Source of the DNA: a virus
Lineage: Duplodnaviria; Heunggongvirae; Uroviricota; Caudoviricetes
DNA length: 5,271 nt
Strand: one strand, 5' to 3'
IMG/VR virus record: IMGVR_UViG_2695420847_000017
Shown here: in pieces, positions 1 to 179 of the stretch
Numbering within the stretch: position 1 is the first letter of the stretch
Layout of the letters: each line of letters starts with the position of its first letter
Program-made: the position numbers and the translations under genes
The notes under the pieces: model-generated
What the model was told of the DNA's origin: nothing
What the model saw: the letters and a program-made list of their open reading frames with translations, nothing else
Database searches by the model: none

Positions 1-57
1 CCTTCCAACCGAGTTGATGAACTCCTGCCATGGAACGTAGTACTCACCAATAAATAA
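1..57 (+). CDS. 3' end of an unidentified plus-strand ORF (…PSNRVDELLPWNVVLTNK*), partial at window edge
   Basis: Frame 1 is open from position 1 to TAA at 55-57. It is convergent with the holin fragment and followed immediately by a hairpin (56-85). No homology recognised; only 18 codons visible. Confidence 0.2.
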   Translation, partial: PSNRVDELLPWNVVLTNK

Positions 58-85
58 GCGTCAATACGGTGCTCCGTTGACGCTT
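56..85. terminator. Inverted repeat/hairpin AAGCGTCAA-(12 nt)-TTGACGCTT between the convergent gene ends; possible bidirectional terminator
   Basis: 9-bp perfect arms at 56-64 and 77-85, with an inner CGG/CCG extension. Minus-strand side is followed by AUUUAUU. It overlaps the stop codon of the truncated holin (84-86). Confidence 0.35.
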
Positions 86-179
86 ACACTTTATCGAGCA
101 GCTGTAAAAACCAGTAGCCAGCACTGCCTGCGGAGGTGCCGTAGGCAATGCCCGTTGTTAACTTATCCATGGATTTCAT
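84..179 (-). pseudogene. essD: Truncated class II (phage 21 S-type) holin: first 31 codons only ([31 protein letters not shown])
   Basis: ATG at 179 preceded by GGAGGTGA. The MKSMDK dual-start motif (Met1/Met4) is typical of S21 antiholin/holin. The reading frame hits TAA at 84-86, where full-length S21-type holins (about 71 aa, from memory) continue with the transmembrane region. No alternative frame continues the homology. Confidence 0.65.

Follow-up and report, generated by a model that had tools for sequence, protein, structure and literature searches.

The question raised by this locus is why the gene of an S21-type holin ends after only 31 codons and what has become of the remainder of the lysis cassette. 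The window, i.e. the whole stretch of 5,271 nucleotides analysed here, carries on the minus strand a 5' fragment of the pinholin gene (essD', 84..179), which comprises 31 codons followed by a TAA stop codon contributed by the end of an insertion sequence (IS), and which covers the dual start and the first transmembrane domain (TMD1) only. Its product is 100% identical to residues 1-31 of the intact 71-aa EssD (WP_000839582.1), in accordance with the sequence-only reading that the holin stops at codon 31. The profile search assigned the product to Pfam PF04971 ('Bacteriophage P21 holin S') with E=9.8e-11 and 41.9 bits, which exceeds the curated cut-off of 26 bits for this S21-type pinholin (class II holin) profile, the alignment spanning only profile positions 1-27 of 64. 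The letters also include the dual-start motif MKSMDK (Met1 and Met4, with Lys2), from which an antiholin and a holin form would be produced. The putative Shine-Dalgarno (SD) sequence GGAGGTGA (184-191, minus strand), read from the sequence 4 nt before the ATG, consists of the same letters in the aligned intact essD loci. Both of these start signals, M1 and M4 included, had been described as retained, and the letters agree.

As a separate observation, a perfect 10-nt complementarity was found between positions 129-138 and 185-194, i.e. between codons 15-18 (CACCUCCGCA) and the essD SD region (UGCGGAGGUG in the mRNA). Such pairing could sequester the SD sequence; the fold of minimum energy that was predicted (z only -2) does not contain it.

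The two transmembrane domains of a pinholin, the SAR-like TMD1 and the pore-forming TMD2, are not both encoded by essD', the ORF of which ends at LDKV in the TMD1-TMD2 loop. The loop LDQVSPSQ joins TMD1 to TMD2 in S21 (10.1101/2021.04.20.440580). Since the cut (LDKV|TPSQ) falls in the equivalent loop, the peptide has all of TMD1 and is devoid of TMD2 and the C-terminal tail, and the former statement that the holin stops before any transmembrane segment was wrong. No part of EssD residues 32-71 was detected by tblastn in any frame of the window, which was also the earlier conclusion, and neither endolysin nor Rz coding was detected in any frame of the window by the same technique. The endolysin and spanin genes expected immediately after the holin are thus not found there within the window; in the complete Escherichia coli chromosome CP010238.1 (L016) they are situated 2.5 kb away, past the IS.

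The DNA to the left of essD' proved to be the right end of an ISEc23-like element of the IS66 family (1..87, plus strand; the window begins inside the element), as determined from matches to tnpC ends and by alignment. Megablast against 5,426 complete E. coli genomes produced thousands of matches of window 1-95 to the 3' ends of tnpC genes annotated as IS66, ISEc23 or IS682. The 3' end of a convergent plus-strand ORF, which had been noticed before, does end at position 57 and represents the last 18 codons and the stop codon of the IS66 transposase gene tnpC (1..57, plus strand). Its translation, PSNRVDELLPWNVVLTNK followed by the stop, is the exact C-terminus of the 537-aa TnpC encoded in the draft assembly L004. 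The Pfam search assigned this TnpC to PF03050 (DDE_Tnp_IS66, E=2.8e-97) as well as to PF13817, PF13005 and PF13007, and its neighbours in the full element are TnpA (HTH, PF01527) and TnpB (TnpB_IS66, PF05717). The full element in L004 (10093-12624) has 2532 bp and is 99.9% identical to the annotated ISEc23 in L003. The TnpC DDE transposase, the GTAAGCG termini and the tnpA-tnpB-tnpC array of about 2.5 kb, an organisation that was seen in the relatives only, place the element in the IS66 family. The terminal inverted repeat IRR (64..87, minus strand) reads GTAAGCGTCAACGGAGCACCGTAT from the end, and it agrees with the opposite end of the same element in L004, GTAAGCGTAAACTGACCGCCGTAT, at 20 of 24 positions. 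Window 81-87 is CGCTTAC, i.e. the GTAAGCG terminus that was described for inverted repeats of the IS66 family (PMC12888890). The advice to look upstream for an IS was therefore sound, and the convergent gene is tnpC.

The hairpin reported between the two ORFs exists as well, with perfect arms of 10 nt (TAAGCGTCAA/TTGACGCTTA, 55-64 and 77-86) and a 12-nt loop instead of the 9-bp arms stated earlier. This subterminal palindrome of the IS right end (55..86) folds with -17 to -22 kcal/mol (z about -3.9), and none of 200 shuffled sequences equalled the real one. It lies wholly within the IS end and has identical letters in the independent ISEc23 copies of L001, L003, L004 and L016. A function as an intrinsic terminator was considered and rejected; the terminator scan called none in 1-420.

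These data bear on the explanation that a deletion or replacement took the holin 3' end, the endolysin gene and Rz, in which case the hairpin would be a terminator or a scar and the convergent ORF an unrelated neighbour. The window itself, with no holin continuation, endolysin or Rz, would fit such an event. However, the hairpin is a part of every ISEc23 copy examined, and window 1-87 is neither host nor scar DNA, both the hairpin and the convergent ORF being contained in the last 87 bp of the ISEc23-like element.

The breakpoint was mapped by the alignment to intact essD that had been proposed as a check. A three-way alignment of the window, the ISEc23 end and an intact essD locus switches at exactly 87|88; the IS-side matches cover 1-87, and all essD-side matches in the 5,426 complete E. 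coli genomes (megablast) begin at window position 88, with identities of up to 100%. Window 84-87, which holds the third base of codon 31 and the stop codon, belongs to the IS (...GAT AAA GT|G TAA GCG), and the TAA which terminates the holin derives from the terminal GTAAGCG of the IS. A copy of the target site follows at 88..95 (ACTTTATC, which is GATAAAGT in the essD orientation). The exact scan of the GTDB species-representative genomes, among which E. coli and Shigella are very sparsely represented, gave no match to the 29-nt junction. The junction is also missing from the 5,426 complete RefSeq E. coli genomes, a set to which the record CP010238.1 does not belong. Three apparent full-length matches in the RefSeq set were discarded, as they represent a different ISEc23 insertion beside an intact essD.

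Relatives sharing the junction were obtained by exact look-ups of the 31-aa product and of the neighbouring 195-aa AraC-like ORF, the latter of which gave L016. The identical junction is present in the draft assemblies L004, L005 and L006, with 99.96-99.98% identity over window 1-5167, and in the complete chromosome L016, with 99.98% identity over the same part. The junction is thus recurrent, and NCBI has an entry for the peptide under the name 'phage lysis protein [Escherichia coli]'. It is extremely unlikely that the junction is an assembly artefact, i.e. a chimeric join at a repeat, and that the holin is really intact. IS66 ends are indeed highly repeated, and the window resembles a short contig with IS ends on both sides, but no fewer than four independent assemblies share this very junction, and in one of them, a finished chromosome, the reciprocal junction and the target duplication are also present.

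In the chromosome L016, the 8 bp GATAAAGT stand on either side of the IS as a perfect target duplication, and excision in silico of the IS together with one of the duplicates restores the exact 71-aa EssD. Beyond the IS, essD codons 32-71, rrrD and Rz, and then the terminase, portal and protease genes, follow directly in line. RrrD of L016 (165 aa) shows 98% identity to its L002 counterpart, and for Rz (155 aa) the identity is 99%. An independent ISEc23 insertion in L003 likewise exhibits an 8-bp duplication, AGTTACCG. The duplication in L016, the restored EssD and the lysis genes beyond the IS, along with the duplication in L003, argue for simple transposition without deletion. The clean insertion with its 8-bp duplication and the intact downstream lysis cassette in CP010238.1 make the removal of the genes by deletion or replacement very improbable. 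The assertion that the 3' part of the holin gene and the genes of endolysin and Rz had been deleted or replaced fails in this only complete genome with the junction, where all of them follow the IS. Similarly, the phrase 'lysis cassette lost' is unsupported: the pinholin is inactivated, yet rrrD and Rz are intact beyond the IS in L016.

The IS copy in L016 (10868-13399) differs from that in L004 by four single-base gaps, and its tnpC was called as a 61-aa fragment only. These gaps are either sequencing indel errors in the assembly or signs of a decayed transposase. No in-frame start (ATG, GTG or TTG) for the 3' holin fragment was found inside the IS end, and the 72-aa 'holin' called in L016 was dismissed because it begins at ATA, which is not a start codon.

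A different arrangement was found in the draft scaffold CYES01000016.1 (L004/L017). On the far side of the IS (L004 12625-20096), this scaffold carries a CP4-like island with genes for WYL, GTPase, AlpA, a YfjJ-like protein, QueD and DpdD, the last two being 7-deazaguanine DNA-modification genes. The IS flanks in L004 differ (GATAAAGT vs TAATAAAG), which means that, in contrast to L016 and L003, there is no 8-bp target duplication, and no holin 3' end, endolysin gene or Rz was found in the scaffold within 10 kb beyond the IS. The unrelated island and the missing duplication are the other data in line with a deletion, and the absence of lysis genes on the far side in L004 speaks against a reading in which nothing at all was deleted. 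The arrangement in L004 is explained either by two ISEc23 copies that recombined at a later time or by a scaffold misjoin across a multi-copy repeat. Unless the scaffold is misjoined, IS-IS recombination may have parted essD' from the lysis genes in at least one relative (L004).

The same course of events might be proposed for the window's own genome, i.e. a simple insertion first and then an ISEc23-ISEc23 recombination (inversion or deletion) that moved or removed the block of the 3' essD fragment ('essD), rrrD, Rz and the late genes. The lysis cassette would then be unlinked from the late promoter, with an L004-type junction, CGCTTAC|TAATAAAGCTTTTG. The hybrid IS with non-matching flanks in L004/L017, together with the site of the island, which is uninterrupted in other genomes, agrees with such recombination, as do the many IS66-family copies of the source strain and its second IS66-family junction at 5168, which is missing from both L004 and L016. 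On the other hand, L004 is a short-read draft scaffold across a multi-copy 2.5-kb repeat, where misjoins typically occur, the arrangement in the only finished genome is the simple one, and the window, which is uninformative either way, starts 87 bp inside the IS. We consider such secondary recombination in the window's genome possible but rather unlikely; the far side of the IS there probably has the same simple arrangement as in L016.

Taken together, the results indicate, with a probability of roughly 0.93, that the insertion of an ISEc23-like element split the prophage pinholin gene essD and that the insertion itself removed nothing. According to this proposal, an ISEc23-like element of the IS66 family (2532 bp, tnpA-tnpB-tnpC) would have transposed into essD of a lambdoid, DLP12-like E. 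coli prophage after the second base of codon 31, with duplication of the 8-bp target GATAAAGT. The IS would lie antisense to essD, which brings the 3' end of tnpC, together with the right inverted repeat, next to the 5' fragment of the holin gene. Its terminal GTAAGCG would complete codon 31 (GTG, Val) and provide the in-frame TAA. The split gene would then encode a 31-residue product with both starts and TMD1, the SAR-like regulatory helix, and without the pinhole-forming TMD2. A simple insertion of this kind implies the reciprocal junction ...GGTCAGTTTACGCTTAC|GATAAAGTCACGCCCTCACAG (CGCTTAC|GATAAAGTCACGCCCTCACAG in the essD orientation), at which the IS would run into 'essD GATAAAGTCACGCCC. 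As an IS insertion into a prophage gene the event is ordinary, and it is already in public records (the NCBI peptide and CP010238.1).

The TMD1-only peptide of 31 residues might alternatively be a retained functional variant, i.e. an anti-pinholin acting in trans that delays lysis by resident or superinfecting phages with S21-type pinholins. The SD sequence, both starts and the entire TMD1 are kept in essD', and a passage in PMC4749879 citing Park et al. 2006 describes TMD1 as acting in trans as a negative inhibitor of TMD2. In this reading, the peptide could be made from the Q-dependent late promoter and could delay the pinholes formed by S21-type holins of co-resident or superinfecting lambdoid phages, or could modulate phenotypes of the DLP12 lysis module such as vesiculation. 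However, the end of the peptide is fixed by the IS end, the flanks of the carriers are 99.98% identical, which indicates a recent event in one lineage, and nothing points to selection or to an independent recurrence. By exact look-up, 648 index blocks were obtained for the peptide, but in most of these it is the contig that stops at codon 31 while the gene itself is intact: 7 of the 10 listed places (L007-L013) end at codon 31 (position 10093/10094), and these are unrelated contigs carrying the intact-type continuation GTCA. The existence of a conserved 31-aa S-like form was rejected for this reason, as the 648-block count is largely a contig-break artefact and overstates the IS-truncated allele. 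Retention of the peptide as an anti-pinholin is highly improbable. More generally, counts of 'identical truncated proteins' in draft assemblies are inflated by contigs which merely break at the codon in question.

The remainder of the phage DNA in the window (88-5167) is a lambdoid late/nin region. Its minus-strand order is ybcN, ninE, ybcO, rusA, ylcG, the Q antiterminator gene, a lipocalin/YbgA/AraC-like cluster and essD'. The cluster (367-3125) is a cargo of three genes between the Q antiterminator and the holin genes: a lipocalin/Blc-like gene (2601-3125, plus strand), a YbgA gene (1449-2408, minus strand) with DUF523 and DUF1722, and an AraC-like regulator pseudogene (367-1097, minus strand) with a frameshift around 982. 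Relative to the intact 243-aa version in L007, the pseudogene has a 1-nt deletion in a T run, which splits it into ORFs of 44-47 aa and 195 aa. Its orthologs in L002 and L015 are also frameshifted according to RefSeq.

A second IS66-family end, which is ISCro1-like, occupies 5168-5271. It starts with GTAAGCGACTCGTCAGAACCGTATTGAT and encodes a TnpC C-terminus, ...HIQDWPANRVRDLLPWKVDLSSQ followed by the stop, on the minus strand. Two different IS66-family elements thus enclose the phage segment of 5,080 bp with their right ends, which face inward. Neither the complete E. coli genomes nor L004 or L016 have the junction at 5168. Hit H81, which seemingly spans window 88-5271, was set aside, since it combines by chance separate pieces around an ISCro1 that is inserted elsewhere. 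The window, which has 87 bp of IS sequence at one end and 104 bp at the other, resembles a short-read contig delimited by repeats. The second IS66-family end, unlike anything at this position in the retrieved relatives, makes a further rearrangement in the source of the window possible.

TMD2 was described as necessary and sufficient for pore formation by S21, while the N-terminus times the activation (10.1101/2021.04.20.440580). Since the pinhole-forming TMD2 is missing from the essD' product, pinholin function is probably lost and pinholes would not form, as judged from the published work on S21. SAR endolysins are released slowly without a holin, which leads to later and less synchronous lysis (PMC9239132). 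With the late operon interrupted by 2.5 kb and no pinholin to act as a timed trigger, lysis would be expected to be delayed and gradual rather than abolished, provided that the downstream genes are still linked and that RrrD is of the SAR type like R of phage 21. The prophage of this strain thus probably lacks timed, pinholin-triggered lysis. That the prophage is probably defective, as was proposed from the sequence, is plausible, but the reasons are other than those given, namely the knock-out of the pinholin, the 2.5 kb that now interrupt the late operon, and the second IS66-family end at 5168. The lysis module essD-rrrD-rzpD/rzoD of DLP12 has been linked to vesiculation and the production of OMVs in K-12 (PMC7918800), and vesiculation is the sole wider phenotype that might change.

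Beyond its correct annotation as one more pseudogene made by an IS in an E. coli prophage, the locus matters little. It illustrates that a short 'holin' ORF next to a hairpin and the end of a convergent ORF can mark an IS boundary and should not be taken as a deletion.

In comparison with the known element ISEc23, nothing substantive differs: the end of TnpC and the right inverted repeat are the same in both, and the window includes no more than the final 87 bp of the element. With S of phage 21 (the S21 68 pinholin and the S21 71 antiholin) and with EssD of DLP12, essD' shares the MKSMDK dual start, TMD1, the match to PF04971 and the position downstream of the antiterminator Q gene in a lambdoid late region. 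In contrast to these proteins, only 31 of the 71 residues are left, and the product is not a class II holin with two TMDs, as TMD2 and the charged C-terminal tail are missing. The intact DLP12-type module essD-rrrD-rzpD/rzoD is found in the same order and with near-identical sequences in the relatives L002, L015, L016 and L018, whereas in the window the first gene of the module is split by the IS and the lipocalin/YbgA/AraC-like cluster lies between Q and essD.
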